This document shows positions 5,948 through 56,320 of a stretch of DNA of 64,000 bases, one piece after another; within the stretch, counting starts at the first letter, position 1, and each line of letters starts with the position of its first letter. The DNA comes from Kondoa subrosea (taxonomy: Eukaryota): assembly GCA_039545335.1 (NCBI GenBank), contig BCIN01000005.1, forward strand, positions 1,020,641 through 1,084,640, given 5' to 3'. The position numbers and the translations under genes were made by a program. The notes beneath the pieces are model-generated. The model did no database searches and was not told the DNA's origin. It was given only the letters and a program-made list of their open reading frames with translations.

Positions 5948-8900
5948 CTACGTCAAGACAACAATCTTGCCTAGACCAATAATCGTTGTGCTTGGAGCGA
6001 TAGTATTGACTTTGAAGCGGATACTATTAGTAAATTTGGTTCCAGTGAAGACGGTCGTGGCTGATCCGTCTGTTTTGAGAGATCTCGTATCTTGCGTTGT
6101 GGCCAAAAGTCCAGCGGTCAGAGCAGAAGAGAAGGTAAGGGTTCCGGACATGATCTGGTCTTTGCCTGTCGTGGTCGCGCCAAACATGATAATCTGTTTG
6201 ACAGTCTGTGAAAGAAGCAATAGGGTGAGTCATTGTGAAGATGAGGTAGGAAAAGACATAGACTTACAATCGGGTATGGGAAATCGAGCTGAATCCAATT
6301 GCCCGTTCTAGAGGTAACCCAAGCAGATTGAAGAGAACCGTAGTTGACGCCTGACTGGAAGTCTCCATTGGGAACAAATTGACTGACAGTGACAGTCGCT
6401 GCGTCGGCAACGTTGTTTGGCAAACTTTCTTCTGGATAACTTCGCACTGTTGGCATTGCAACTGCGGATGATGTAGAAGAAGTCTTGCTTGCAGAAGAGG
6501 AGGAACTGCTAGAAGAGGAAGTGGCTTTGCTACTTGTAGGAGTCGGACTTTGCGAGCTCGAGCTTGAACTTGAGATGGAAGTCGAAGTCGCCCGGGAAGA
6601 GCTAGATGAGCTTGAAGAACTACTTTGCTGCGAGGATGAAGTAGTTTTCGAAGCGATAGGCGAAGAGGAGGTGCTACTGCTTGTTGCCGGAGTAGAAGAG
6701 CTTGAGGACGATGACTTGACAATGCTGCTGCTGCTACTCGATGAGACTGCGCTCGAGACTCTGCTAGAGCTCTGGGATAACGGGCTACTGCTACTTGATG
6801 CAAGTACGCTGGAGCTAGGCGATACAGAAGTACTGCTGCTTGATGCGATTACGCTGGAGCTGGCAGACAGAGAGCTACTGCTGATCTTCTGAGATGACGC
6901 TGACGAAAGCGCTGAAGAAACCGAATTGCTAGAGGCAATAGATGACCTCTGTGAAGCACTGGACTGCACATTGCTGCTAGGTTGCATTGAAGCGGAGGAA
7001 TAAGCCGAAGCCGAAACGACACTCGGCAGGACGCTCGACGAAGCTCCTACGGAAGAAGAGTTGTAGCTAGCGGTGATGCCTCCAACTGGGTTCAAGAAGC
7101 CAGAAGCCCCATATGAGATGGCGCCAAGGCTGGCAGAAGGCATGGCCGATGACCGAATGCTAGACCCGCTGATGGTTGCACTTGCAGATGAAGATCTTGC
7201 GGACCCATAGCTGGAAGCCGACATACTCTGGCTGATGCCAGAAGACGCAGGAGGTGCGGGCAAGACGAATCCAAAGACTTGGAATTCTGTCAAGCCAACA
7301 GAACGCGTTGTGCTGGCCAAAAGTAATCAGGACAAAAGCACATCAACGAGAAAAGAAAAACGTACGAGCTGACGCTTTTGACAGTAAAACGCGCCCATTT
7401 GACTTTCTTCATGGGGAATGATTGTGTCAAAGGAGTAGTTCCTGCGTTTGGCAGAGCTCCAGTTGTGATTCCGCTTCCGTCGCTGAACGTCACTTGGCCA
7501 GTAGTGACTTGGCTCGTGGCCGATTGACTGTCCCAAAGCGAAATCCTGGTAATGTTGACCGGAGAAGACCAAGTTAGAAGCACATAAGCGCCTGCTCCTT
7601 GACCGTTTGACGTCCATTCGGCGGTTGTGCCTAGAGAAAGGTTTAGCATTTCTTTTCGGCAGAACAAAATCACAACTGACCATCGATAACCCGAGCAGCA
7701 GGGTTTGCCGTCGTCTGACTTGACGCGACAACCATAGCCAAAGGCGCAACATTGACCACTGCTGTAGAGAAGGGAACTGCTGCTGAAGAACTTGCACTTG
7801 CGCTGAGTATTTGTGAGCTGGAAGAACCTTGAGAGGTCAAGATTTGAGATACAGATGCCACACCTGAGCTTAAAGCTTGGGATGCCGATGGTAAGCTTGA
7901 GATGATCGAAGAGGGAAGAAGGCTGCTGCCAGATTGCTGAGACGACTGCGCTGCTGAAGCTGGAGATTGAGATAGCGCGAAGGAAATGACAGAACCAGAA
8001 ATTTGGCCAGACGTTGATACGGAGGCTGAAGGGCTTGGCAGACCACTAGAGTAACCAGAAACGTTAGATACTGATGCGATGGAAGATCCAGAAATTATAG
8101 TTGGTTGCATTGACGAAGCTGAGACAGACATTGATGCTGAAATCAAGGCGCTGACTGGAACACCAAAGACTTGTATTTCTGCCAAACCTACATTGCCGGT
8201 TGTAGCAGAAACCGAAGTGACAGTGAATAGTAGACTCGTAGCAATTGTAGGCGGGAAAGCAGCGGCAGGAGTGTATTTGCCAGCGTTATTAAGTTGACCA
8301 ACTTGAGCGATAGATCCGTCCGAGAATGTGATAGTCCCACTCAAGACCTGATCATTCTGGTTTGGTCGATCAGCAAGGTTGATAGAGGAAATCTGATAAG
8401 CTTGGTTCCATGTGAGGTTGAGAGTAGCGCCAACGCCTTGGCCATTGGTAGACCATTCTTTTGTGTAATCTCCTGGGTCTGAAACAGCAAATTCAGCTCT
8501 GAAAATTCCTCCGATTTGAGCAGGACCCAAGCTTACATCCATCATCAACACCATCAATGGCAGCGCGAGCTCCTTGATTAGGCGCTTCGGAAGATGCGAC
8601 AGCAGAAGCCAAAGGTGCAATATTGCTTTGTGGGAGACTTGTTGCGGTTGGCAAAGGCCCACTCGTTGACGCGGAAGCCGAAGCAGCGCTCACAGGCAGT
8701 CCGTAGACCAAGATTTCGGAAAGACCCACATTGGCAGTACTGGCCGAAACTGAAGTGACTGTGAACAACAAGCTCTGAGCGGTGACAGGTTGCATAGAAA
8801 CTGGAGTAGCGGTGCCATCGTTGTTTAATTGCCCGATCTGAATGGCAGAGCCATCTGAGAAAGTGATCGTTCCACTGAGCACGTTATCATTGAGGTTAGG

Positions 8901-10685
8901 TCGATCAGCAAGACTGATTGCTGAGATGCGGTAAGGCTGACTCCAGGTCAAGTTCAATGTGGCTCCGACTGTTTCTCCATTGCTTGCCCATTCTTTCGTG
9001 TAGTCTCCGGGATCTAAAAGGCCTGTTAGCAAATTTGAACGCAGATGACAACGGTTTAAGCTTACATCCGCCTAGAACTCCGTCGATGGCTGCATCTGCT
9101 TCCTGTCCATAAGATTGCGAAGAAGCTGTGGCAACAGCAAGTAGAGCGATATCGGGCAGACTTGAAGTGGTAGCTGAGGGTGCAGCTGAAGAAACTGTTG
9201 CAGAAGCTTGAAGTACTTGATATACTTGCATTTCAGCCAAACCCACACTGCCAGTGGTGGAGGAGACGCTTGTAACGGTGAATGTTAGTGTCTGAGTAGT
9301 ACGAGGTACAAAAGTGACCACGATCGGACCACCTGAATTGTCGAGAGTACCAACGCTGACCGAAGATCCATCATCGAAAGTCAGAGCACCTCCTAGCACT
9401 TGGTCCTGCGAAAGATCATGATCAAAACAACGCTCAGTACACTCAAAATGAAACTTACATTTGAGTTTGGTCGATCGTACAACGTCACTTGACCGATAGT
9501 GTATGGTTGCGACCAGGTGAGTGTAATCCACGCTCCTGTACCTTCGGAATTGGAGGCCCATTCGGCAGAATAATTTGCTGGATATCCGCTGATCACACCA
9601 TCATTGACTCTGTTCGGAGGTTGTACGCTGGAACTAGAAGAAGCGGTTGCAGTAGCCAGAAGCGCAATGTTGTTGGACGTATCTATTGCCACTGAAGAAG
9701 TAGAGTTGTTGGCTGATGTTGTACCAGCACAAGTCATCACTTGGATTTCAGCCAAACCAACGCTACCAGTAGAAGAGCTGACACTTTCGACAGTGAGGAG
9801 AAGAGACGAGGTTGTGACCTGGTTCAAAGGGAAAGCAGCTGCTGAACCATCGTTATTTAGTGTACCGAAATTTGAAGTTGTTCCATCTTCGAAAGTGAAA
9901 GTTCCACCAGTCATCCAATCGTCAGGATTAGGACGATCGTATAGCTATCCTAAGCGTTCAACTGGTGCTATTCCAAAATGAAGAACAAAACTTACAACCA
10001 CCGAGCAGATAGTATATTCTTGGTTCCATGTCAAAGCTAAAGTTGCACCATCTCCTTCACCATTGCTGGCCCACTCTGCGCTATAATTTGCAGGGTAGCC
10101 AGAAATGACACCATCGATTGCACGTTGAGCCGGCTGAACGCTTGAAGCGCTGGAAGCTACAATTTGGGCCAGAGGAGCGATGTTGATGCCGGACGAAGCA
10201 TCTTGTGTGGAATTGGAAGAGGCAGCTAGCGAACCATAGACCTGGAATTCTGCTAATCCAACGTTCGAGGTTGTAGGAGAAACAGCAGTAACTGTAAGAA
10301 GAATAAAGGTTGTTGTGATAGGAGGGAAAGTGAAGACTGTTGCTGATCCATCGTTGTACAAAGCGCCAAGAACGACTTCAGTACCGTCAGAGAAATCAAT
10401 AGTCGCTTGCCACATCTGGTCATTCAAGTTCGGACGATCATAAAGGACAACGGTATCGACTGTGTATGCTTGAGACCATGTGAGAGTGAAAGTAGTGCCA
10501 ACTTTGCCTCCGTTTGAGCTCCATTCAGCATAGCCATTGGTCTGCAAGATAAGTCAGAGAGTATCCATATACTAAGTATTCAAATGTACGGGATATCCAT
10601 TCAAGTTATTGTCGATAGCCTTATCAGGTGTTTGGCCGGAAGCGGAAGAAGAAGCGGAAGCTGTAGCTAGCAAAGCAACATTCTG
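5948..10685 (-). repeat. Seven tandem protein-domain repeats of about 135 aa
   Basis: Approximate units 10685-10236, 10183-9735, 9672-9221, 9153-8703, 8624-8165, 7753-7272 and 6414-5948; Ser-rich spacers about 7770-8150 and 6430-7250. Confidence 0.85.
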
Positions 10686-11801
10686 TTCATTGGTCGGGAC
10701 CGGTCCAGCTGAAGTTGGTGTAGTGTTGACTGCAATGGCTGGTTGAGAAGCTTGTAATGCAAGAGAAGGTGTAACGATGTATTGGCGTTGAAGCCAATCA
10801 ACTTCCGGTCTGCCTGCAGCCACGCAAGCCGATTGACTTTGACACTCGTTCGAATCGTATGCTTAAAAGAAACGGAAGTAAGGAGGTGTGTGAAGGAAGC
10901 GACATATTGAACTTACGAGTGTAGACGAAGAAAGCAGATGTCTTGGCAGCGATTTGATCGCTTGACAAATTAGGTGCATAGTGGACACTTGCAGGGTAGG
11001 CCATGTAACCGTTCAGTGAAGCAGTGGATCCCAATGAATTATAGATGGAAGAAACAATGCGAGCAGTAGTCTGATGATCAGTGTGGTCGCCAACGCCGTA
11101 GTCAGAGAGATAGTCCAACGTCTGTATGTTGAGTGGCTGGCGAGCAATAATAATCTGTCCCAAAGCTGTGACTAGGTCGGTCATTGAGAAAGTGGCTGTT
11201 CCATATCTGTTGTTCATGAAATCGATCGAGCCATAGTACAGCTTGAGTAAACTTTGGTAAGATGATCGACCAAAGCCCGACCCATCCATATTCCTATGGC
11301 GGTCAAAAAGCGCAGACGTGAGCGAGTGAACGGAGGTGCTACTGAAAAAGGCTCACCCATCAGGCAGGCGGAACCAGACTCTCTGAATGTTGGGCTGACC
11401 AGCAAGAGTTCGAACAAGCACAGGTTGACCAGCAAATGAGGCGTTGTATTCAGTCCAGGAATCGGTCACACCAGCCATTGAAGCATAAGCAGCTTCATTG
11501 CCTGCTTCTCTGCTTTCTGAGTAATCGAAACCAAGACCTGCATCACCAGAGGTCATGAAGACATGAGTGACGCAAAGGCCACTTTGAACGGGTCCAATCA
11601 GATCGGGAGATTGACTGTCATTGTTATTCTGTCAGATTGCCATTTTCGTAGAAAGAACAGAAACACTGACAACAACAGATCGTCATCAGGATGAGCAACG
11701 ATACTGAGTAATCCGCCAACACAGTTGAAGACTTGAGCTTGAACTCTTGCAAGTTGAAAAGCCAGTACAAAGAGTGTCGTCAACGCATGAAGCTTCAACA
11801 T
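5948..11801 (-). CDS. Secreted PIG-L/LmbE-family N-deacetylase fused to 7 tandem discoidin/F5-8C-like (DUF7402-like) modules with Ser-rich linkers
   Basis: Signal peptide MLKLHALTTLFVLAFQLARVQA; AHPDDD (about 11680-11696), TSGDAG, R-x-x-G-x-x-x-AY and DHTDH (11074-11088) metal motifs; then repeated N(I/V)A..A...SS...AIDG...EW.SNG...L.W...DRPN...F.DG...L.N.G...VT.VS..T.NVGLAE.QV units; stop TAG 5948-5950. Confidence 0.85.
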
Positions 11802-40185: not shown

Positions 40186-40703
40186 AATTTGTTCATTCAT
40201 AGCTAGTGCGTAGTTTTTGCAGTGTTTTTGGAATACTACTGATGCGATACCAATGAATGAAAGTCTTGCGACATTTTTTCCCTCAAACAATGTTCCTGCA
40301 GAAAGGGGATGTCTCACAATCTAGACCGCCCGTAATCGCATTCCTCCTGTCCTGATGATCACAAGCAATGTTCCTGTTCGCCGACAAAACACTGTACCGC
40401 TTCATCAGTTCGATGAGTTGACTACTCTCGTGTTGGAGACAATCAAGCAACACAAAAGCTCAAGCATTATGCATCACCTCATCCTGGCTGAACGGCGCTT
40501 GATCAATTCTACCGCTTCGCGTTCCGACTTGGCGCGACTGGAAGCGCGCCGCACTTCAAACCCCCACACTTAGGTGCACTCCGCTACCTGTTGCTTGTGC
40601 CCCGCTCGCTGTCTTCCTTGTCTGCTTCTGCTCTTGACTTGCTAAATCAACTCGCGCTTGCTTTCCTGTAATCTTTCATTTACTCCAATCTCAGAACACT
40701 ACA

Positions 40704-42504
40704 ATGGCACCAGCAATGAATATTCCCCCGACATTCAAAGCCGGTAAGTCAAGAGCCTTCTCAGTAGCAACTTATGTTCGCTCATGTTTTACGCTTCTTG
40801 ACTGCCATAGCGGTGTATGATAAGCCAGGATCTATTTCCACCAAGATAGAAGAGCTACAAATGCCTGAACCTGGCCCAGGAGAAGTGCTCATCAGACTGG
40901 TAATCCGCTATCCATCTCGTCTTCATTCGACGTTTTACTAATTTGGTTTGTGTAGACACACTCTGGAGTCTGTCACAGGTGAATCAGACAGCTTCTTCAG
41001 CAGCAGAACGGATTTGCTGACGTCTTCCCTTCTTGGTTACCGTAGTGATTATGGAATCATGACCTGCTCATGGCCAGCTTTGCCTAAACCAACAGAGAAA
41101 GGTCAAATAGGGTAATTTATCAGATCTATCTTGGTTAAATCTAGCTGAGCCCGTCTCCAGTGGTCATGAGGGCGTGGGAGAAGTAGTGAAGCTTGGTCCA
41201 GCTAATGATGCTAGCTTGGTCAAAGTTGGTCAAAGGGTCGGCATCGTGCGTCTTCTTCCAAGCACTCTTTCGAGCCTCTAATGACTATGAATCAGAAATG
41301 GGTAGCAGATACTTGCGATCTTTGCGAGCCCTGTTTAGCTGGACATGATGCTCTCTGCAGTACGTATCTCTGGATACTAGTAGTGATCAATCGATGAATT
41401 GCTCTACAGCCAGCGTCAAAAACGCAGGATACTTCACTCCTGGTACATTTGGTCAATATATTCTCGGTCCATCTCGCTATGTCACACCTATCCCAGATGG
41501 TCTGGACAGCGCAATTGCTGCGTGCGTCTGAATTTCATTCCTAAGCCATTATCAAGCTCATCAATTCTTTCAGACCACTTCTTTGCGCCGGTTAGCCAAC
41601 TTTACAAGTGTAGACAGCGATGCTGACAATAACAATTACAGGTGTCACAGCTTACGCTGCTTTGCGAAAGTCTAGGACCGTCAGTGGTAACTACGTTGTC
41701 ATGCTAGGTGCAGGAGGAGGTCTAGGTTCGCCTGCTGATCCATCGGAATGCAAGCAGCGGCTAACCTTCTCTCAACGCAGGACACTTGGCCGTTCAAATT
41801 GCTGCTAAAAGTTTGGGTCTCCGAGTTATTGGAGTGGACCATCCTTCAAAGAAGGAGTTCGTTCTGGAATCAGGCGCCGAACACTTTATCGACCACACGA
41901 CTTGCAAAGATATCGGTGCTGAAGTTGCAAAGCTGACCGGAGGATTTGGGGCTCATGCTGTAGTGGTGTTGACTGCCGCAAACCCTGCTTATACTGCGTA
42001 AGTTCTGTTCATTACTTCAGGCAGAATGATTGTCGTTGATATGTTTTTCTTTCAGTGCTGTCACTTGCCTGAGATTTGGAGGAACTCGTATGTTACGTGC
42101 TATTTTACGGTGACCATGTGCTAATGCTACCTGAAGTTGTTTGTGTTGGTCTTCCTGGTATGTCCTGCTTACGTCTTCTGTGCTCCCGCGACTCATCTTG
42201 GATGCAGCCGGAGCAATGGTTCCTATCGCAACAGCCTATCCTTCCATGATTATTCTCAAGGAAATCACCATTGTCGGATCTTGTGTTGGTAATCGTAAAG
42301 AAGCTATCGAGACTTTGGATCTGGCTGCACGAGGCTTGATCAAGACACACATTAGCCTTGAACCTATGGATCAGGTGAGCTCTTGCGATTATCCATCACG
42401 AGGTTATGTCGTGCTGACTAATCATCCATCAGCTGGATTCGGTCTTCGAGAAGATGGGCAAGGGTCAGCTTAACGGACGAGTGGTCATTGATCTCTGGAA
42501 GTAA
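40704..42504 (+). CDS. Zinc-dependent alcohol dehydrogenase (MDR family)
   Basis: SGVCHSD, GHEGVG, structural Zn C-x2-C-x2-C-x7-C (CDLCEPC...C), GAGGGLG, GRVVIDL; about 13 introns; TAA 42502-42504. Confidence 0.92.
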
Positions 42505-42827
42505 AAACTCGTGTCCTATGTCTGTAACAAGTTATTTTGCACCAATTGTATTCCGACCTTCTTGAAATCATGCTACCTTTTTGCATCTCAACCATCTAAG
42601 CTCTTCTTGAACTGTGCGCTGCCTAAGTCAGGAAAGCACTACTAGATTTTAGCTGCTCGAGAACCCTCGGTAGGAGCGTATCAGGCAGCAAAGGACGCGT
42701 TTTGCAAAATCATGATGAAGGTTTCGAAGCGAATCTATGCCGATCTGTTGGAGCTCTCTGTGTACTTGTGTGCTCCAGTCAGCCTTGGAACCATTGCAGC
42801 TCATCACCTTGCTTCTCACTGCCTCTT

Positions 42828-42841
42828 CCCCTCAAATAGCG
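42828..42841 (+). promoter_or_regulatory. Candidate cis-element CCCCTCAAATAGCG upstream of the beta-hydroxyacid dehydrogenase
   Basis: Lies 85-98 bp before ATG 42926; an identical 14-mer occurs in reverse orientation at 49042-49055. Confidence 0.4.
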
Positions 42842-42925
42842 GAACTGTGAAAGCGCCGAGCTGAACTGATCTACCTCTTTCTTTTCTGTACCGTGCATTC
42901 TTAATTACAAGTATCTATCAAATCA

Positions 42926-44096
42926 ATGACAAAGTCTATGACACACACCTATGGTTTCAGTGCGTACTGTCAGCTAGCGACCTGGTGCGGTCTTATCTGA
43001 TCACTTTGCGGACAGTCGGTTTGGGAGCTATGGGGTATCCAATGGCGGCCACTCTCATCAGCAAGCTGTCAGCGCAAGATACAGTCTACGTTTTCGATGT
43101 CTTCACCAAAACTCTCGAGCAATTCAAATCTGAGTATGGGTCAAGTAAAGCGTCCTTGGTACTGTGCAATTCAGCAAAGGAAGTTACAGAGAGTTCTCAA
43201 ACAATCATCTCAATGGTACCGGAAGGCAAACATGTCGATACCGTGTTCTTTGGCGATCAAGGCGTTTGCTCTGCATCAAGCTACTCTGCCAAACTCTTCA
43301 TTGATTGCTCGACCATTGATGTCGCTACATCTGCTCGCGTAGCTGAAGCGCTCAAAAACAAATCTCTTTTCTGCGATGCTCCTTGTTCTGGCGGTCCTGC
43401 TAAATCAGCAAATGGAACTTTGACTTTCATGGCTGGAATTTCAGAAACGGATGCACATTGGGAACAGGTCAAAGGTATCCTCTCACTCATGGGAACAAAC
43501 ATCTTCGCTTGCGGGGGTCCACAAAAGGGATTGGCAACCAAATTGGCAAATAATTACCTATCGTCAGTTCAGTCTGGAGTTTAGCAGAGTCTTTCTTACG
43601 GAATCACTTTCCTCAGTGGTCTAATAGCCATTGCGACCAGCGAAGCCATGTCAATAGGCCAAGCTCATGGACTCGACCCTCATGTTCTATCCAATGTCTT
43701 CAATGCCAGCACTGCAAGTAACTGGATCAATGCGAACTGCAATCCTGTACCTGGTGTATCTCCAGCTGCACCTCCTTCAAAGTCATATGTTGGAGGATTC
43801 AAGGTAAGACTACTGCATTAACCAGCTATTCGAGTCTCTTTGTGAATCGTTCCTTTCTATAGGTCCAGCTTATGCTCAAGGACTTCACCCTGGCGATGGA
43901 AGCTGCCAAAAGCAAAGATGTCAATGTAGTGCTTGGCGAGAAGGGTTTGCAAACGTCAGTCTTGATCTTGAACGAAAAACACACATATGCTGAAAAGTAC
44001 TTTGAATACAGATACAAAGAAGCTTCAAGTGATCCGCGCTATATTGACAGGGACTCAAGAGTGGTTTACAAGTATCTCAGAGGGGAAGATATCTAG
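42926..44096 (+). CDS. beta-hydroxyacid dehydrogenase (3-hydroxyisobutyrate dehydrogenase-like)
   Basis: GLGAMGYPMA, IDCSTI, DAPCSGG, catalytic KLANNY, CNPVPG, YVGGF, MLKD. Confidence 0.9.
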
Positions 44097-44325
44097 CCTA
44101 TCCTCATGCATTTTTTAGATCAAGCTTGTTGTTCTTAGACCATAGTATGCTGCATTTTACATTTCTAATTCTCTACTCCTTTCTTCCTCCCTCTGACTGT
44201 CCGTAAACGCGTATTGTTTTTGTTTTACGCGTTAAGCGCCCCTCCTGAAATGCTTGCCCGCATTTAGTTCCATTAGATTGAATCTCTTCTTTTCTGTCTT
44301 TCTATCTCGTTGATCATCAATCGCA

Positions 44326-44987
44326 ATGTCTCGTCATATCTCTGGAACTGGAAGCAACGATACCTACGAGAAAGGTTTAGCGATTCGTCGTGCGGTAGTA
44401 GGCGACGAATATGTCAACCGGGCTCTTGAGAATGGTTCTTCAGATTTCGCTCGTTCGTGCTCTTTACTCGATCTACGTATCTGAATATTGAGCAAGTATC
44501 TAGAACCAATGCAACAGCTTGTGACGGAAGCATGCTGGGTGAGACAAGCGCTTTGATGCATTGAAATCATACCAACTATCCGAGGCAATAGGGTCTAGTT
44601 TGGGGACGTCCTGATCTAGCGAGGCGGGACAGAAGCATGATCAACTTGGTCAGTCTGGAAGATAGGCTGTATACGAAGATATGCTGATTAAGCTGTATTC
44701 AACAGGCTATGCTTTCAGCTCTAAACAGAGGACCAGAACTAGCGATTCATGTCAGAGGAGCTATTAACAATGGTCTTACGGAAGTAGAGATCCGGGAAGT
44801 GCTATTGCAAGTTTCAACATGTCAGTCACTTGTTCCTTGAATTCATCGCTCCTGGTCGACTGATACACCAATACTGTTAGACTGCGGTGTACCTGCTGGA
44901 ATTGAAGCTTTCAAGATCGCCGAAAAGGTCATTAAGGAGATGAAAGCAAATGGGGAATTTCCCGCAAGTGCAGGTTCAAAGTCGTAG
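44326..44987 (+). CDS. Carboxymuconolactone decarboxylase / AhpD-like protein
   Basis: Spliced GLAIRRAVVGDEYV...VTEACWGLVWGRPDLARRDRSMINLAMLSAL...ELAIHVRGAINNGLT...YCGVPAG; not in the ORF track; TAG 44985-44987. Confidence 0.9.
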
Positions 44988-45292
44988 AGGTGTTTGGCTT
45001 TTGCATTGCATTATTCTCTTCCCATCTTCATCGCGGACCACCAATTTACGTATCGGAAGCGACCGTGACATTCCGCCCGATGAATTCGAATCATAAAATG
45101 GCAGAATTCATGAATGACCTAGAGTGATGATCACCGGCGTTGTCATCTTATAAGCGTAAGACGACGAGACGAGACCATTGACCTGTCAAAATGTAGAATG
45201 CGAGATTACATAAGCATTCGAATCCCGGATTTACTTTGGGCCGAAAGCGCGGAGAGCCAAAGAGGAATCAGAAAAAGTGATAGAGGTACAAC

Positions 45293-48200
45293 ATGGGCAA
45301 GCATTCCTGTCAGTGCTGCATCGTATCCCGGATCTCGGTCGCAGGCTAAAGAGGGTTCATTTGCAGGCGTATTTTGCGACAAGACTTTCAATCGATTGGA
45401 ACATCTGTAAGAGGCTGCCAAGGGAGTAGTAGCAGTGTTACTGAAGATGTTCTGTCACAGAAATCGTCATACTGCAGCCCACACAGGCAAGGAGTCGACT
45501 TTGTTCGCACATAACCCCGCTAATGAATGTGCTCGAACAGGTCAAAGGGACCATGGTTGTAACCTTTGCGGTGCCGCTTTTGGTCGAAAGTAAGCTTCGC
45601 CGTAATCGTTTCCACATCTACTAAGTACTCTACCTCAGAGATCTTCTTCAGCGACATATTAGAACAATTCATTCAGATCAAGTAAACGCGGCGAAAGCTC
45701 ATGGTCAGAAAGATGGGGACGAGCAGAAGCCCGCTAGGAAGAAGCGGCGAACCAGTGAGCTTGTGCACCAATATAATATCACTCGTGCTGAAATGTACCA
45801 GACGTCGCTTTAAGAGGTACGATAGTCGACGATCCAATCTTCTTAGTTGTAATGATTATGTACTCTGCAGGTCTACAGTGGAAGGAAGACAGCGAAGGTG
45901 CGGAAGCTTCGACCGATGGAGGAAGCTACAACATACCAGGTCTGTGGCTATTCCATTCGATGCGTGCATTTGCTTCTTGCTTAAGAATTGTGTTATTCGT
46001 ATACAGTCACTGGAAATCAGCAGCAGCAGCAGCAGCAGCAGACTTCTCCGCAAACAGTCACTCAGTCGGCGAGCGACAGCAACATAAATCTCGACCTCCT
46101 CTCGATGCTAGCCTCAAGCATACCATCTAATCCTGCAAATTCACAGAATCTTTGGCTTTCTAACATGCAGCAGACTCAAAACGGCGCTCAAGCTGACTTT
46201 AATCATCAGCCTGAAGGTATCTTCACAGCAGCATCACAACTTCCGTATTCTCTGCCGAGTGACCTTTTCAACGACACTTCAGGTATGGGTGCACTCAACA
46301 TGCAGAACTCAAATCTGGGCACCATGGAACTGCAGAACAACGTTGATCCCTTGAGCTATGACACAAATTTCATGCAGCAGCAACCTATGCCTTGTTGGGA
46401 AGACTGGGTGGAACCTTGGATCAGCTCTTGCGTGTAAGCTTTGTTCTGTGAAGCATGATTGATACCTATAGTTTTTCTGTGCAGGAACACCAACCCGCCG
46501 CTAGACTTTTCATCGCCTGGACTGTTTCACACTCCACTCGCCAATCCACCTGCACACGGGCGCTCGCCTTTAGGCCAGTCTCAGCAATCTCTGACAGAAA
46601 CAGAAGAAGCTCGCGACGAAGATCACCAAAATATGATCAACGTGCCATATATTCTAGTCAGCAATGCTCCATCGCCTGGTGCCGAAACAGTACAAGACGA
46701 CACCTTATCCATGAGTGCTGGATCAGTGGATCTCACAGGTCCAGCATCCGCCTACACAATCACCGCTGCCCAACACGCTACGATTTGCGAGTCGATCAAG
46801 GCGGCTTTGCCGGCCTCTACTTCTCCGCCGATACTGCCTACTCAATATGGAATGAGTCGCTACTTGAAAGGTTACTTCAACGGTCTTCAAAGACATTTTC
46901 CCTTTCTGCACAGACCGACATTCCGCCTGGAGCAATCAAGCGCCACTCTTATAATCAGCATTTTGACAGTCGGCGCTCATTACCTCTTCGAAAGATCTGT
47001 AGCTTTGCGTCTGCATCTTATATGGAAAGCGTTGAAGAAAGGCAAAGGTCGAGCTGGACCCCACAGTCAAGCAGCTGTTTCCCCGCGACTTGTAAATGGA
47101 GCAGAAGCACAATTAGAAGAAGCTCAATCTTTGCTGTTGATTTTGGTTTACATGACTTGGTCGCCAGAAGAGGGTTTGCTGCAAGAAGCTTTGGGTTACC
47201 AGTCACAATTGGCTAATGTCAGTGTCTGCTGACGAAGCGCTTGTTATGGTGCTGATGCTCGATTTAGATGGCGAGGAAAGTCGGTTTAAAGGATGAAGAG
47301 AACTCGAAGTCGCATGAAATTAGACGGAACGAGAATGATTGGCATAGTTGGATCGTCGAAGAGCGCGCTCGAAGGTATATATCATACTTCGTTGAGATGT
47401 ATACAACTAACGAAACTTGCTTAGAACCAAATTCAGCATTTACTCCTTCATCAATTTACAGTGAGTGTTCTTTCTTGCGCTGGAATCAGTGACCTAGAAT
47501 TGATTGTTGTGTAGAAATATTGTCTATCAAGTGGCACCTTCACTGCTGAGTGCTGAGCTACAATTGCATATGCCCTGTTCGGAGACGTAGGTAGTATTGG
47601 AATCATGCTGAAGTCGTATAATCTTAACTGTTGTTACAGCGAATGGAAAGCTCCATCTGCGCAAATCTGGGCCCGCTTACCTGTAAACCAGCCGCAGCTA
47701 TTTGCTCTACATCTCAGCGAAATGTCCAAACCGACAGCAGGCGTACAGCTGCCTAAATTGGATGTCTTTGGAGCATACATTCTCATTTCAGCTCTGCTTC
47801 AGTCTCTTTTCTTTCGCAAGCAATTATTAGCAGAATCAGTTGATCTGGCACCTGAGAAGGCCGCCTTACAAAAGTGGCTCGCCATATATGAAAGCGAAAC
47901 ACAGACCTCCCAATTTGCTCCTGAACCTCTCGCCTTCAATGCGACCGCTCTCTTGCGCCTGGCATATGTTCGACTCTATTGTAATTTCGGACCTGCACTC
48001 TCATTCCTCTCTTCGTGCGATGCACATCAAGTAGCCGAAGAGATTCTATCTATGCCACCGGTAGAAAGAAATGCAGAGATCTGTCGAGCAGCGGATCATG
48101 CCCGAAGAGGGCTGAACATTCTTGTACGCATAGGTCCTAGGCTGTGCTCTCAAACACAAGCGTTTGTCTGGAGCTTACAGCATTCACTCTGTTCTTTCGA

Positions 48201-48603
48201 AGCTGGTACGTTGCTATCGTCGAGCTTATTGCCAAAGCTCAGATTGTGGATAGCGCTGCTACTCGCAAGATGGCTGCTACCAATCACTTCGGCGGAGAAG
48301 AGCTCGCTAACATCAGAAGAGCTCCACGTATTACAGGCTGTTGAAGCAGCAGTATGTGAAGACGAAGATATTGACAAAGCAAGGAGTCTCAGCGCCAAAG
48401 TCCTCCTCATTTGGGTACGTTGCCGTATTGTTCAGCTCCTCTTTGCTGATGTCTATCCAGGCTCAACTCTACAGCGGTACTACAGTCTGGTCGTGAGTCA
48501 TCTTTTTCCTGTAGAGTACTTCTTCGTCTGACGAGATCTTAGCATCATGCCGCTGCTTGGAAATTGCTTGAGATTGGTCGCGGAGGGTTTAGATACGCAA
48601 TAG
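45293..48603 (+). CDS. Two-finger C2H2 transcription factor with fungal-specific TF (middle homology) domain
   Basis: Spliced CVFCDKTFNRLEHLNRHTAAHTG-QRDHGCNLCGAAFGRKDLLQRHIRTIH (Adr1/Mxr1-like helices), polyQ, HFPFLHRPTF, WIVEERARR, FNATALLRLAYVRL. Confidence 0.88.
46018..46041 (+). repeat. (CAG)8 microsatellite encoding polyQ in the TF
   Basis: Eight perfect CAG codons. Confidence 0.9.
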
Positions 48604-49041
48604 CGTGTAATTGCATGTACTCATATTGCACAAACACATGAGAGCAATACTCGTAACAATACCGGAAACAGTAAATGAACCATCTAATTGCGACAGGACT
48701 GATCAGCGAGCGCTGACACCTTCCGTCGCACATTGTCATATACTCGAACTCAGATCGCTTTTGCAAGTTCAACGATCAGAGTAACCATCCCGAATTGTTT
48801 CCTAGCACTAGTCGTGCGCAGCGTGCTTGCAAAAGACTTATGCGTCTCTGTCAAAGATCTCCACCTGTCAGATACCATATCTCGCTCACTCGCCAGTTCT
48901 GCACATTTCTTGGCTTTTTCCTTCTTCCGTTCTTCTCCTGTGCCTATCATGCTTGCTATGAGAGTGTTGTGCTATGAGCTTTACATCTTGCAGTGCCAAG
49001 CTGGAGTCCGCTGAGGTTGCTCCAGGTTGTGCCGCTTTTTT

Positions 49042-49055
49042 CGCTATTTGAGGGG
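49042..49055 (-). promoter_or_regulatory. Candidate cis-element (reverse complement of CCCCTCAAATAGCG) upstream of the MBL hydrolase
   Basis: cgctatttgagggg, 110-123 bp before ATG 49165. Confidence 0.4.
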
Positions 49056-49164
49056 TTTCCGAGGAGAAGTCTAGCATTTACTATTGATCCAGTACAGGAG
49101 CGGGCGGGTGCTCAGAGAATGATATCCGCTGGTACAGTGCTGTCCTATACTTGGCTATTCCCCA

Positions 49165-50313
49165 ATGTTGATCACCAGCAATGCAGAACTGCCGTCCTCA
49201 GCAAGCGATCAAGTCTATTGTCGCGTAGCTGCTCTCGACTCGGGTCTGTTCAGCTTACCAGAGCGTGACTTTTTGCAAGACGGTCATCCCACAAAGCAAT
49301 TCCAAGCTCCATCCCTGTCTTTTCTCGTTCGACATCCTGCTGCTGGTTCTGAAGAATTACTTCTGTTTGATCTGGGACTTCGAAGGGATCTTACAACCTA
49401 TGTGGATGCTTTGCAATCGCATTTGGAAAGTAGACGCCGTAAGTGCTATACGGATAAGGATGTTGGTCTATCTAATCAGGAATCTCTTGTAGCGTTTAAT
49501 GTCGAGAATGAAGCGAAGGATTGCTTAGAACAAGGTGGAATTGATCCAAATGAGATTTCTTTCGTGCTTCTTTCGCATGTCCACGTATGTCAAATAATTT
49601 CGCCGAGTTGTATGCTATGCTGAATTCTTTCGAAATCAAACAGTGGGATCACATTGGTCAACCACGCGACTTTCCTCGGGCTCTTCATCTCGTCGGTTCC
49701 GGCAGCTTACATCTTCTCAAACAAGGGCGAGGCGCGAATGGTGCTGGACACTTTGATGCTCATCTCTTTGATGGTCTGCAAGTTCGAGAGCTACCGAAAC
49801 CTACCAACAAAGATCCGGAGCGCTTTCCTAAGGCATACCATCCACCTCTGAATGGTGTTTACCAATGCAAAAGCGGAGGATGTTGGCAACCTTTAGGACC
49901 ATTCCCCAATACGCTCGACTTCTTTGGAGATGGTTCGCTATACATCGTTGATGCTCCTGGTCATCTGTATGGTCATTGCAACCTGCTTGTCCGAATTGGA
50001 GATGGAGAGTGGGTTTATCTAGGTCAGTCCAAATTGTTACTATGTCGTGAGCAACCTGCTCACAGAAGTAATAGGAGGAGATGCCGCTCATCATCCTGAT
50101 CTACTTTCTGGTGCTCGACAAATAGCGCAATGGAAGACAGCGGATGGCTGTTTGAGCGGGTGTATGCATTTGGACAAAGCTGCGACAGAGGAAACAATGT
50201 CCAGAATTAGGTCCTTGAAGAAGCTCAAAGATTCAAAAGTCGAAGTGATTCTTGCGCATGACCAAGTTTGGAGAAAGGCGAATCCACACCGTTTCTTGCC
50301 TGGACATCTTTGA
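49165..50313 (+). CDS. Metallo-beta-lactamase-fold hydrolase, AHL-lactonase/lactamase-like
   Basis: LLFDLGLR, SHVH|WDHIG (HxHxDH split by an intron), DFFGDGS, PGHLYGH, GDAAH, LAHD. Confidence 0.88.
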
Positions 50314-50747
50314 GCTTGCTAGTAGTAAGTGAATCTCATAATGACTGCGTGGCAAGGCTAATCCTAAGCAAGCACAGAACGGTTTAGAGTGCACAGCGTA
50401 GTCTGATCCGAGTCAATTGTCAGCGATTTGTAACAAGTTTTGTAAGGGTTCATCGCATATATTCCTGAGTTTTGTACATAGCATAGCGATAGGCAACAGG
50501 GTCAACCAGGGTCTACTTCTCCTTACGTAAATACTTCTGCCATTACGTAAACAATAAACAACTTGCTCGTATATATTCCAGTGATTTCGAGCTTTGCCTC
50601 TCTTTCACGAAGCACCATTTTCAGGCAGAAGCTCTTACTTCGCGTAGCTCTCGACGTGATCCTTACTGTGCAGCGTCATACGCACATCATCTCGTTCACA
50701 AAGCTCTGTACTTCACCTACCTCGCTTTGACCTCTTCTTTTTACGAT

Positions 50748-52263
50748 ATGGTCCTATTTAAATCTGACGAAGCCAAATTTCTCGTCAATCTTATCGAGAA
50801 GACCGCTGGAATTGATTTGCTCCATCCCTGCGACCGTAGCGAGATTCGCAAGAAATTGAATGCGGGTACATTCGAGCGTCTTTGGACTATTCATGAGCAA
50901 GATGGGGCACCTCTCCTCTATTGTTTCGCTTTAGGTGTGATGAACGGTGTTGTCATTAAAGAGAAGCATCATCAGGGCGTTACGCAGGTTTTGGAAATGG
51001 GTATCATGGAGATGGTCGAAGTTGATCAGATTCGAAAGTGTATGGTCGAATACCCGAACGACGGGAGTTATTGGAACTTTGAGAGTAAGGATGGTTTGGG
51101 TGGCATCTCATGCATGAGCCTGGTCGACGTTGAACATTACAAGAACACTTTGAAACCTCAAGTTTCAGCTTGTATTGCTCAGAAGCGCTTCAGCGCTGCT
51201 CTCAAGCTCTTGTGGCAAGAAGAGTATCCCACCACCGTCTCCTTCATGGCTATGGATGCCTTCGCTGAAGAAAACACCCCGCTTTTTCAATCCATCTTCG
51301 AGAGTATTGCAGCTCTCGACTTTAATCTGGAAGACGGCGGCGAGCAACGTCAGATTCAGTACATTGCAGTATGCGAGTTGGCAAGACTTTTGACTCTCCT
51401 GGTTGGCTATGCCGATCCTCGAAAGACCGTTGTTGGGTCTATCTGCACTCAATTATTCACAGCTGGCGTAAAGCTAATTCTGGTCATCGCTGGAGCTCTC
51501 AAAGCAGATCTACCTCACAGTTCCATCACTCCTGAGGCACACCAACGCGCTTCGACAGTCAAGTTAATCAAAGATTTGTACTCCTTGGTTACAATGTGCC
51601 TTCTCTTTGATGAGACCGGCTGCCTCGCACTCGTCGGCTCTTTCGACATCATTCAGCTCTCTCCAAGTCACGAAGCCGATAATCTCGACTCGCGATTCGA
51701 GTTTCTTGCGAAGTGGTATTGGTATTACGGAGTATTGAAAATTCTGGCTCAGGATGGATCAGCTCAATCTGCTGAGAAGAAGGAACGAGACAGAAGACTA
51801 GTCGAGGGAATCGAATTCCTGCCTCGTCTATTCCATCCCAACTTCGAAGTCTGGCAGCTCGACCTGGATAATCCAAATGAAAAATTTTATGAGGTCCATG
51901 ATCCGATCCAGAAATCCTTGCACTTGATCAACAGTTTCAAACAAGGCGTACTCTGCCCAGAACCCCTGTATTTTGGCAGCGTTGAGGCGTGTCATCATTG
52001 TGGTGTAGTTGAGCATGGGAACTTTGCACAGCAGACTTTCGAGCAGTAGGTCTGCTTATCGACTTCTCCACGAGCTACTGAGCGGTCAACCGATAGCTGC
52101 GATGGTTGCGGTGTGATCATGTACTGTTCAATCGAGCATGCGCAAGCCGATTGTGAACACCAAAAGAGCTGCCGCAAAGAAAGACCACCTTCAACTGAAG
52201 GTGAGCTGCTTGTATGCATTCACTCTGCTCTTCGCATTGAAAATGATAAGTGCAGACTTGTGA
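50748..52263 (+). CDS. Protein with C-terminal MYND-type zinc finger
   Basis: Long helical exon then CHHC...|CDGC-GVIM-YCSIEHAQADCEHQKSC; ends DL* (TGA 52261-52263). Confidence 0.75.
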
Positions 52264-52373
52264 AAATGATAACAGGGGTGATCATTGAGATGACCCAAAT
52301 CGCGCTGGGTAGAACAATTTCTCTCGCTTTTTACAACGTGTAGTAGAATTCCATCAAAATCAAACAAGGTACA

Positions 52374-54318: not shown

Positions 54319-55863
54319 TTAGCACGAACGTCCACCAATGAGCACAGGGGGTGTCAAAATTACTTGAAAGCAGGAATCCAACGATCGCGAGGTTATTTCT
54401 ACTGACCATGTCCGCTCAATCACTTGGCTATCCAATACTTCCAGACTTCTGATATCCTCCGGCCTCATCTCCTCATCTTTTGCCAAAGTCCATCTCACTT
54501 TCAACCCAGTGGGGACCATTCTTGCCAGCTTATAGAACTCGCGCTCAACACCGAGACGCAATAACTCCGAAATCCTTTCACAATATCTGTTGGAACTACT
54601 CGCATCAAGTCCATCCTCCATAGTTCCTAGACTTTCACAATCTGATCTTTTCAGTTGACATTGGAATTCGAAATAGGCAAGGTTTGGTAAAGTTTGCCGA
54701 GAGAACAAAGCTTGGAAAGCGTCGGGGAGACCAGAAGACGACGCGTTGAAGAGTGCTTGATAAGGCAGAGAGATCATTAGACAAAATTTGACCAGGTTGG
54801 GTGCTGGAGATAGAAGAGGGAAGAGGTCTGCAACGGTAGTGGCCAGAAGCCCTAGTCCAGTATCTGACATGATTTCGAGGTCCAGATTGGCTATTTCAAT
54901 TGTAAGGTCACGCAAAGCCGGAAAAGGAATTGAAGTATTGAAAGCCGATGCGTTCAGCTGGATGCTGCCAAGACTGAGTTCAATAAGAGAAGCGAAGGAA
55001 ATCCTTGGGATTATGTCCTCTCTGAAAAGAGCCAGAGTGTCTGGGCTTGTGCGACCATAGTCAAAATTAAACGCTTCGATATTTGGGCACAACGAAAGCA
55101 GAATGGCTAGCTGCATATCGCTCCCTTGTAGAGGTGGCGAATTGAATATAGTGAGTCGACGCAGAGCAGGGGTAATGGAACCAATCGTGCGAAACCCTTG
55201 GAAGTTTAGCTGATCTGGAAAGCAGAGGACTTGCAATTTTGGGCTCTTCAGGATCGGTTCGAGCCACTCCAAGGGAACACATATACGCTCTAATCCTGAA
55301 GGCCATGGGTTGCAAGCCTGAAATGAGAAATCAGTCAAATTGTCCAAATGGAGCGCTCCGCCAAGCTGAATATGCAGGCTGCTCAAGGGAATGAGCACTT
55401 CAGCAGCTGCTGCAAACTGACTGTCCAGAGTCAATTCAAGGCTTAGATTGTGCAGGCTTGTACAATACGAGAGAGCTGCCGCAGCCGACTTGACAACGGC
55501 CAGCAAACTTCTCTCGCCATAGCGAAGCGATCTGAAAATGCCGTCAGACTCGTTTGGTGCCAACTTCAGAGATATCGTCCAGTCCACTACTTTCACCATG
55601 GTACCGTAATCAGAGTGCTTTTCGAGAGTCTTGGCCAATTGAGGGTGCAAGAGCTGGGTCGGCAAGATCTTTCGATAGAGTCTTGGAAGAACAAGAGAAT
55701 GAAAAGACTCTAGACTCGCACTATAAGGCCAAGCTCTCCCAAACAAGTCAAGAAACAGACTTGAACACAGCGACAGAACGCTCCAGTCCTTTGCATTCGC
55801 GCCTTCGACACTTGAATACAAATCGAACACCTCTTCTAGCAATTCCACAGGCAGCGGAGCCAT
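54319..55863 (-). CDS. F-box-like / RNI-LRR-like protein (paralogue A1)
   Basis: MAPLPVELLEEVFD...LSLCS(K)SFHSLVLPRLY; Leu-rich LxxLxL repeats; the 514-aa ORF probably includes an in-frame 51-nt intron. Confidence 0.75.
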   Translation of the reverse strand: MAPLPVELLEEVFDLYSSVEGANAKDWSVLSLCSSLFLDLFGRAWPYSASLESFHSLVLPRLYRKILPTQLLHPQLAKTLEKHSDYGTMVKVVDWTISLKLAPNESDGIFRSLRYGERSLLAVVKSAAAALSYCTSLHNLSLELTLDSQFAAAAEVLIPLSSLHIQLGGALHLDNLTDFSFQACNPWPSGLERICVPLEWLEPILKSPKLQVLCFPDQLNFQGFRTIGSITPALRRLTIFNSPPLQGSDMQLAILLSLCPNIEAFNFDYGRTSPDTLALFREDIIPRISFASLIELSLGSIQLNASAFNTSIPFPALRDLTIEIANLDLEIMSDTGLGLLATTVADLFPLLSPAPNLVKFCLMISLPYQALFNASSSGLPDAFQALFSRQTLPNLAYFEFQCQLKRSDCESLGTMEDGLDASSSNRYCERISELLRLGVEREFYKLARMVPTGLKVRWTLAKDEEMRPEDIRSLEVLDSQVIERTWSVEITSRSLDSCFQVILTPPVLIGGRSC

Positions 55864-56320
55864 TGTTCCGGCAAGTCCAAGCTCAAAAGTTCATACAAAC
55901 CAGTCCGAGCTTGACTGCTGAAGGAGACCAGATCACTGGCAAAAGCTGGGGTACACTCGTCAATATCTTGGAGAGCAGCTATACGAGGGCTTCCAAAGTA
56001 GCTCAAGAGCTCGTTCGGGACCGAGAAAGCAAAATACAATCCTTGATGCGAGACGTCGAGCTCGCGCTTCGGATTGACACAAGGATAGGCTAGACACTGT
56101 AAGAGGCTTTGCAGCAGCTTTCGAGCATTAACAAGTGCATACAGCGACCTAAGAAGACTCAATCTGCCTTGCATTTTGCGGGTCTCTCAAGCTGTTTCTG
56201 GGTTATACTACAATGTCAAGCCTACCTTATGAATTGCTGGATGAGATCTTTGGTCATTATTAGAGGATAGAAGGTGTATGCTCGTCGTATTTTGCTGTGC
56301 TTTCACTTTGTTCCAGTCAG
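55560..56320. repeat. Inverted segmental duplication, arm 1 (partner about 63230-64000+)
   Basis: Reverse complement aligns by eye with 63230-63985, e.g. gagcttggccttatagtgcgagtctagagtc and aagactctcgaaaagcactctgattacgg. Confidence 0.9.

Follow-up and report, generated by a model that had tools for sequence, protein, structure and literature searches.

The locus and its five genes

A 64,000-nt stretch of the Kondoa subrosea genome (contig BCIN01000005.1, positions 1,020,641-1,084,640), hereafter referred to as the window, was analysed because it contains a candidate catabolic gene cluster. All positions given below follow window numbering. In the spliced models, five intact genes, all co-oriented on the + strand, are located within positions 40704-50313, as follows:

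40704..42504, + strand: Zn-dependent medium-chain alcohol dehydrogenase (ADH) of the fungal 'ADH II' type; 14 exons, 362 aa; PF00107
42926..44096, + strand: beta-hydroxyacid dehydrogenase, a paralogue of 3-hydroxyisobutyrate dehydrogenase (HIBADH) without presequence; 5 exons, 314 aa; NAD_binding_2 and NAD_binding_11
44326..44987, + strand: single-domain CMD/AhpD-fold protein of the 'CMD1' group, a putative sister subfamily of PcaC; 5 exons, 146 aa; CMD PF02627; Cys54
45293..48603, + strand: transcription factor (TF) with two C2H2 fingers and a Fungal_trans domain; 15 or 16 exons, 859 or 841 aa
49165..50313, + strand: metallo-beta-lactamase-fold (MBL) lactonase-like hydrolase; 4 exons, 327 aa; metal-ligand motifs

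The exon-intron models were built by hand from coordinates and are all predictions, with open spliced frames. The introns are 46-67 nt in length and of the GT-AG type, except for one probable GC-AG intron. Their small size and high density suggest a basidiomycete genome. The intergenic gaps are approximately 420, 229, 305, and 560 nt in gene order, in agreement with the original prediction, which was made from the sequence alone and described five adjacent co-oriented genes separated by approximately 0.2-0.6 kb. Pfam searches with exon pieces detected ADH_zinc_N in the ADH, NAD_binding_2 and NAD_binding_11 in the dehydrogenase, CMD in the third gene, and Fungal_trans in the TF, and gave no matches for the pieces of the MBL gene. 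The family assignment of the latter rests on its metal-ligand motifs, a weak match to the AttM family, and the Lactamase_B matches of its fungal relatives. No description of this cluster was found in a library of open-access papers (subscription journals were outside the scope), and the locus is apparently a conserved catabolic module that is new to the literature.

Family assignments of the encoded proteins

The CMD protein is the sole PF02627 match in the genome, in which 18.9 Mb on 27 contigs were searched, and its closest outside match shares 93% identity. It resembles PcaC in fold and length, shows 39-45% identity to three PcaC proteins from real pca operons (L186-L188), and shares with them three motifs, i.e. 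W-x-R-P, H-x-R, and Y-x-G-x-P-A. In a quick tree containing 37 rows on the CMD1 side and 3 on the PcaC side, however, the CMD1 group forms a separate clade (SH-aLRT 99), and Cys-Trp is found in 37/37 CMD1 rows at the place of Ala-Trp in 3/3 PcaC rows. A homologue, P0124, scored 143 against TIGR02425 (PcaC), its best family match, which is below the cut-off of 155.7, and pca genes are absent from the recurring neighbours. The predicted structure of P0124 (pLDDT 90) matches PDB 2AF7 with an rmsd of 1.7. These data indicate that CMD1 is a PcaC sister subfamily with its own invariant Cys, for which the PcaC label is evidently wrong.

The invariance of this Cys (37/37 rows versus 0/3 in PcaC) and the occurrence of CMD1 beside flavin monooxygenases would also be consistent with an AhpD-type protein in a redox or peroxide-protective role, or with an isomerase, either of which would protect or aid a two-enzyme lactonase-dehydrogenase route without C-C cleavage. 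AhpD peroxidases contain a C-x-x-C redox motif. This motif is absent from the CMD1 alignment, and CMD1 is, with the above identity to PcaC from pca operons, far closer to PcaC than to AhpD-like structures, which makes such a role quite improbable.

The dehydrogenase carries the catalytic Lys motif and, as in NAD-type enzymes, an acidic residue after the second strand; its model begins six residues ahead of the first strand and thus lacks a presequence. HIBADH-family enzymes oxidize a hydroxymethyl group beta to a carboxylate, yielding an unstable beta-oxo acid. The fold and catalytic motifs are those of this family, and the solved structures closest to the clade of the window enzyme are HIBADHs, with 2-hydroxymethylglutarate dehydrogenase among the next. 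Its closest outside match shares 79% identity and comes from a contig of 10,637 bases, as does that of the CMD protein, which suggests that the two genes are linked in a close relative; none of 19 ADH matches was on a contig of this length. Five NAD_binding_2 matches were identified in the genome: the window gene, two that are 6-phosphogluconate dehydrogenase-like by sequence, one that is more distant, and one on contig C2 with an Arg/Ser-rich leader typical of mitochondrial HIBADH. The rows of a 53-row tree were selected from a larger set: 9 of the 80 fungal loci, 20 of the 120 protein matches, and bacterial rows from 14 loci. In this tree, the window enzyme belongs to a 15-row fungal clade (100/99) together with the dehydrogenases of related clusters, which is nested in a 25-row fungal group (99/98); the C2 gene lies outside the 25-row group and joins bacterial HIBADH-named proteins with weak support (81/49). 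A full-length homologue scored 245 bits against TIGR01692 (HIBADH), again the best family match and again below the cut-off (291.6). The canonical mitochondrial HIBADH is therefore predicted to be the separate C2 gene and the window dehydrogenase a paralogue. The original prediction had named a sole orthologue of mitochondrial HIBADH as an outcome that would speak against it; the C2 gene, outside the window clade, occupies that place instead.

If the default names were correct, as the best family matches (TIGR01692 and TIGR02425) would suggest, a valine HIBADH and a protocatechuate-branch PcaC would be chance neighbours at this locus. Both full-length homologues fall under the respective cut-offs, a canonical HIBADH is encoded on contig C2, and the linkage of the genes is conserved across fungi (see below). 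In addition, fungi use 3-carboxymuconolactone as the intermediate, and deletion of a PcaC-like gene in Aspergillus niger left growth on protocatechuate unimpaired (PMC10406623). The default names are thus extremely improbable, and the earlier suspicion that they mislead was borne out by the separate canonical HIBADH and by the position of CMD in a sister subfamily of PcaC. Likewise, as had been stated, no further beta-ketoadipate or valine gene was present in the Pfam matches of 16 + 88 open reading frame (ORF) pieces of the window, a scan that short exons escape, nor did the 88 pieces contain another catabolic partner; a probable MMSDH and two intradiol dioxygenases are encoded at other sites in the genome. 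The lone PcaC-like gene of A. niger, NRRL3_08340, is approximately 1,770-fold upregulated on protocatechuate in bioreactor data and its knockout is without phenotype (PMC10406623); it was considered as a lead and dropped, its neighbours in the supplements of that report being unrelated and not induced to a similar degree.

The H-x-H-x-D-H motif of the MBL is interrupted by an intron and, with the downstream His, Asp, and His ligands, provides the full di-metal set in the spliced model. The gene is single copy, being the sole one found in the genome search, and its product shows 37-44% identity to the MBLs of five related fungal loci and 31% to that of a sixth. The nearest ESM Atlas clusters are entirely or almost entirely eukaryotic, and bacterial MBLs, where they match, show low identity (22-26% in the longer alignments). 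Against the AttM family, a full-length fungal homologue scored 48.5 bits and the window exon 25.7, compared with an NCBIfam equivalog cut-off of 390; the fungal homologue scored 33.7 against the 4-pyridoxolactonase model NF047925, below the cut-off of 325. The residues at the bridging Asp are D-A-A-H in the window MBL and D-A-x-H in most bacterial CMD1-linked MBLs. AiiA-type enzymes have a Tyr three residues past the bridging Asp, where the window MBL has a His.

These features bear on quorum quenching or attKLM-like use of gamma-butyrolactone (GBL), in which the MBL would open an N-acyl homoserine lactone (AHL) or GBL and dehydrogenases would take gamma-hydroxybutyrate (GHB) to succinate. The bacterial MBL relatives are annotated as members of the N-acyl homoserine lactonase family, the best PDB matches are such enzymes (with weak E-values), and one bacterial cluster contains an SSADH-like gene. 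The distance from the AttM cut-off and the replacement of the AiiA Tyr by His argue against this explanation, as does the lack of acylase, iron-ADH, and ALDH genes in the window cluster; furthermore, a decarboxylase would be superfluous for GBL use, yet CMD1 is the most constant partner. We consider it very unlikely, and the quorum-quenching and attKLM/GHB part of the original prediction was not sustained.

The TF contains a probable in-frame GC-AG intron (45487-45540); its use results in a protein of 841 aa with a normal linker between the two C2H2 fingers, whereas its retention introduces no stop and gives 859 aa and a linker 18 residues longer. The finger helices, R-x-E-H-L and R-x-D-L-L, are Adr1-like. 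The best single-finger PDB match of the first finger of a relative was ADR1, although multi-finger proteins scored higher in sum. When the TF of a related fungal cluster was used as a query, the window TF was the sole match in the genome. Adr1/AmdA-type C2H2 factors bind TTGGRG. The most enriched words in 43 promoter segments from 19 related fungal loci, which are non-independent because the fungi are related, were TTCTCCAA and the GGGGTA type. KTGGRG is present in 43/43 of these segments at 8.25 per kb, a density 3.7x that of 87 control stretches taken from other non-coding parts of long fungal loci (2.20 per kb), and TTGGAGA is 5x denser in cluster promoters than in the control stretches. 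In the window, six YTGGAG sites (two each upstream of ADH, dehydrogenase, and MBL) were found against 1.9 expected (6/300 shuffles; nine patterns were tried), and GTTGGAG is common to the ADH and dehydrogenase promoters. The candidate sites are as follows:

40433..40438, + strand: TTGGAG upstream of ADH, candidate TF site; motif, weak on its own
42748..42778, no strand assigned: two YTGGAG upstream of the dehydrogenase, candidate TF sites; motif, weak on their own
49001..49025, no strand assigned: two YTGGAG upstream of MBL, candidate TF sites; motif, weak on their own

Distribution of the gene set in fungi and bacteria

Using an alignment of 28 members of the dehydrogenase clade, the best 80 of 421 confirmed relatives on metagenome contigs were retrieved, many of them on short loci. 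Named ascomycete proteins nest among these loci, and the contigs are therefore probably derived from Pezizomycotina. With the window models as queries, CMD was found in 40 of the 80 dehydrogenase loci, MBL in 38, TF in 21, and ADH in 7; the corresponding numbers for the 39 loci of at least 7 kb are 24, 27, 16, and 7. The distance to the dehydrogenase is 1.5 kb or less for CMD in 38/40 and for MBL in 35/38 cases. After loci were merged at 90% identity, CMD was present in 18, MBL in 17, both in 12, and CMD, MBL, and TF in 5 of the resulting 45 groups. The original prediction would have been contradicted by genes unlinked in other fungi, and the counts for CMD, MBL, and TF reveal linkage instead. 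The possibility that MBL is a bystander was discarded, as it recurs beside the dehydrogenase in fungal loci.

The usual layout in the related fungal loci comprises a double-domain CMD (21/80), MBL, dehydrogenase, CMD, TF, and zinc ADH (8/80), and some loci add a second MBL and a second dehydrogenase. The double-domain CMD proteins form a family of approximately 250 aa (L044:7183-7917 and 20 more fungal loci; bacterial L089, L090, and L200), with no NCBIfam match and with an adjoining cupin in bacteria.

The membership of ADH is the least certain of the five, but probable. The window ADH shares 58% identity with Fusarium proteins from clusters in which the members bear the name alcohol dehydrogenase II, and no more than 30% with the ADH of related ascomycete clusters, which belongs to a different subfamily. 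Of its matches in seven of the 80 fungal loci, five are the other ADH type and the remaining two represent a partial match approximately 9.7 kb off; no ADH II-type gene was found inside the related clusters among the 80 loci. Contig C7 (approximately 247600-249300; L184) carries another gene of the ADH II type, which shows 80% identity across the longest exon and is not clustered with catabolic genes. Membership is favoured because related clusters carry some alcohol dehydrogenase and because the ADH and dehydrogenase promoters share GTTGGAG. Because of the difference in ADH subfamily, the conserved unit appears to consist of dehydrogenase, CMD, MBL, and TF plus a variable alcohol dehydrogenase. 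The predicted five-gene cluster thus held for the four genes that recur together in fungi, and is less certain for this particular ADH. The relatives of the window ADH bear the same name as ADH II (alcB) of Aspergillus nidulans, a likeness by name; the A. nidulans enzyme is described in PMC10526403 as induced by carbon starvation and as having no known physiological function.

In bacteria, the CMD alignment gave at least 593 genome matches, and neighbours within 8 kb were surveyed for the best 80 of them. A beta-hydroxyacid dehydrogenase was found in 38 of these CMD1 loci, a lactonase-family MBL in 19, and both in 16; for the 55 loci of at least 12 kb, the numbers are 27, 16, and 14, respectively. 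Other neighbours include SDR (20), ALDH (16), MmgE/PrpD (13), and zinc ADH (8), and no pca genes were present among the recurring neighbours. Among 10 plasmid regions with close CMD matches, five contain both partners, two MBL only, one the dehydrogenase only, and two neither, while four weaker matches are true pca operons. Of seven regions retrieved with the double-domain CMD, the whole set is present in three (Acidiphilium, Sodalis, and Paraburkholderia) and not in the other four. The bacterial operons with CMD1 carry importers, i.e. tripartite tricarboxylate transporter (TTT), ABC, and MFS systems. In eight loci, CMD1 and the dehydrogenase are accompanied by TTT binding proteins but no MBL, which indicates a carboxylate substrate; sugar-type ABC binding proteins adjoin one full operon (L153). 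Further contexts of CMD1 include Rieske oxygenases and a cluster that encodes a P450, a maleylacetate reductase, and an SSADH-like protein.

CMD1 and the dehydrogenase are also found in an alphaproteobacterial vitamin B6-type cluster, identified by a pyridoxamine-pyruvate transaminase (647.8 bits; cut-off 600). This cluster, present in L088, L105, L110, L130, L132, and L199, further encodes a GMC oxidase, an HpaB-like monooxygenase, a 2,5-dihydroxypyridine dioxygenase-like protein, two amidases, and PrpD; its SDR is below the pyridoxal dehydrogenase cut-off and its MBL below the pyridoxolactonase cut-off. We take it to be unlike the Mesorhizobium pathway. In L175, L176, L095, L106, L119, and L157, CMD1 without the dehydrogenase is part of operons with ALDH and an alpha/beta hydrolase, which in L175 and L176 also contain a flavin-dependent oxidoreductase, a flavin reductase, and an amino-acid ABC transporter. 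These operons appear to represent a second pathway using the same CMD1 subfamily.

Gene trees had been proposed as a means of detecting horizontal transfer. The 18 fungal CMD1 rows form one group (94) nested within bacterial rows, in keeping with transfer, whereas the dehydrogenases of bacterial clusters form a clade of their own (99/98 in the 53-row tree) separate from the fungal ones. The simplest reading is that fungal CMD1 was acquired from bacteria and that the other enzymes were recruited from fungal families. Because the bacterial dehydrogenases are a separate clade, the fungal set looks partly reassembled, which suggests partial convergent assembly of the cluster across kingdoms.

According to Pfam, the upstream neighbour of the cluster in the window encodes a sodium/calcium exchanger, and its downstream neighbour encodes a MYND-finger protein. 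Positions 50493-52343 contain a long single-exon ORF followed by the MYND finger, and a 523-aa ORF at 54319-55890 shows a weak leucine-rich repeat (LRR) match. A long gene on the - strand (7293-10862), of which at least seven ORF pieces match DUF7402 and some also F5/F8 type C, probably encodes a tandem multi-domain, carbohydrate-binding protein.

Possible pathway and comparison with known systems

We propose, with a probability of roughly 0.65, that the cluster is an inducible module by which a small lactone or lactone-acid is catabolized, under the control of its own Adr1-type TF. Gene content, linkage across fungi, TF orthology, and catalytic motifs are the parts of this proposal that the sequence comparisons establish. 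In the first step, MBL would hydrolyse the lactone to a hydroxy acid. The NAD-dependent HIBADH paralogue would then oxidize the hydroxymethyl group beta to the carboxylate, giving a beta-oxo acid of the malonic-semialdehyde type. In valine catabolism, the beta-oxo acid produced by HIBADH is taken by a CoA-acylating ALDH. Here, CMD1 may remove one carbon as CO2 or formate with no need for CoA activation: loss of one carbon is a natural third step because the partner that is constantly present is related to a decarboxylase working without a cofactor, and formate is considered alongside CO2 because CMD1 has an invariant Cys. Finally, ADH could make the lactone from a lactol or diol, or dispose of the final aldehyde, a role apparently filled by SDR, ALDH, or other ADH genes in related clusters. 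Ring opening, oxidation, and decarboxylation or cleavage, as originally predicted, thus also constitute the best reading here, with order and substrate conjectural.

The substrate class that suits the enzymes best is an acid with a hydroxymethyl branch, together with its lactone. Candidates are branched sugar acids and compounds of the paraconate or 2-hydroxyparaconate/itatartarate type, and the choice of any single compound would be doubtful at best. The hydroxymethyl-branched type is favoured because the B6 ring carries a hydroxymethyl group and because of the PrpD and tricarboxylate-transporter neighbours; a branched sugar acid is retained because of the sugar-type ABC binding proteins in the full operon mentioned above. 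Paraconate would yield succinic semialdehyde, and 2-hydroxyparaconate a product at the level of malate. Fungi naturally produce itatartarate and its lactone, neither of which served as a carbon source for the engineered P. putida strains studied in PMC9875883.

Several observations weigh against a dedicated catabolic module. CMD and MBL are both missing in 6 of the 24 groups having a locus of at least 7 kb; the A. niger NRRL3 gene table in the supplement of PMC10406623 contains no CMD-annotated gene adjoining a HIBADH-annotated gene; and CMD1 occurs without the dehydrogenase in 42 of the 80 bacterial loci, including the flavin-monooxygenase contexts, and is not tied to one pathway. The window cluster contains no transporter gene, no YTGGAG sites lie upstream of CMD or TF, and the excess of such sites in the window is modest and only suggestive. 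The order of the steps and the substrate follow from family chemistry, and no tested function for any module enzyme was found in the literature. Two components of the larger clusters, the double-domain CMD and a second dehydrogenase, were not found in the genome with the queries used; given these absences, the single-copy MBL, and the TF orthology, the window cluster is best regarded as a minimal, rearranged version of a larger ascomycete cluster.

A related explanation is that the cluster serves detoxification: its enzymes would render harmless a toxic lactone or lactam of plant or fungal origin, for example of the 2-hydroxyparaconate, tulipalin, or benzoxazolinone type, and growth would not be supported; the chemistry would overlap with that of the catabolic module and only the purpose would differ. 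The distribution of the cluster in fungi is patchy, as might be expected for detoxification, Fusarium FDB1 contains an MBL of the same superfamily that acts on benzoxazolinone (PMC4726666), and bacterial growth is inhibited by 2-hydroxyparaconate, for which a dedicated ring-opening lactonase exists (PMC9875883). That lactonase, however, is a 127-aa protein of another kind (PMC9875883), and the FDB1 and FDB2 gene lists in Table 1 of PMC10512309 contain no CMD or HIBADH annotation. The importers of the bacterial operons fit feeding, and we regard detoxification as unlikely. The main text of a Fusarium verticillioides lactam/lactone transcriptome study mentions neither carboxymuconolactone nor hydroxyisobutyrate.

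Within the catabolic reading, a more specific scenario can be put forward tentatively, as possible rather than probable: a CoA-independent route for hydroxymethyl-branched lactone acids, in which the Cys-bearing PcaC sister cleaves a C-C bond of a beta-formyl acid. Fungi would have combined a CMD1 of bacterial origin with a duplicated HIBADH of their own, a lactonase specific to eukaryotes, and a regulator of the Adr1 type, and this lineage would have added an ADH II-type enzyme. If this is true, the orphan ADH II class would gain its first pathway context. More generally, three widespread families misnamed as 4-carboxymuconolactone decarboxylase, 3-hydroxyisobutyrate dehydrogenase, and AHL lactonase travel together in fungi and bacteria and thereby mark an uncharacterized catabolic pathway. 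Labels of this kind can cause too many genes for aromatic degradation and quorum quenching to be counted in fungal genomes. Since the window version is minimal, with single-copy CMD, MBL, and regulator, its substrate is directly searchable.

Three known systems invite comparison. The bacterial D-hamamelose (ham) genes encode a dehydrogenase, a lactonase, enzymes of the beta-hydroxyacid dehydrogenase family, and a small lyase, the substrate being a sugar acid with a hydroxymethyl branch. If the ham lyase is a CMD1 protein, the chemistry on the bacterial side has already been described, and the novelty is confined to the fungal cluster. In attKLM (blcABC) of Agrobacterium, an MBL-fold lactonase is likewise coupled to dehydrogenases under a dedicated regulator, and AttL is an iron-ADH and AttK an ALDH (succinic semialdehyde dehydrogenase). 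In the window, by contrast, the lactonase is accompanied by a HIBADH paralogue and a CMD-fold protein, neither an iron-ADH nor a succinic semialdehyde dehydrogenase is present beside the lactonase in the Pfam matches of the window ORF pieces, and the MBL family is far below the AttM cut-off (48.5 versus 390). The Fusarium FDB1 and FDB2 clusters resemble the window in being fungal clusters with an MBL hydrolase and their own TF (PMC4726666, PMC10512309), and differ in that the partners given in PMC10512309 are amidases, a dienelactone hydrolase, and an N-acetyltransferase, with no CMD or HIBADH annotation among them. The window cluster would therefore share with attKLM and FDB1 the pairing of a lactonase with enzymes that act after it, yet appears to be a member of neither system.

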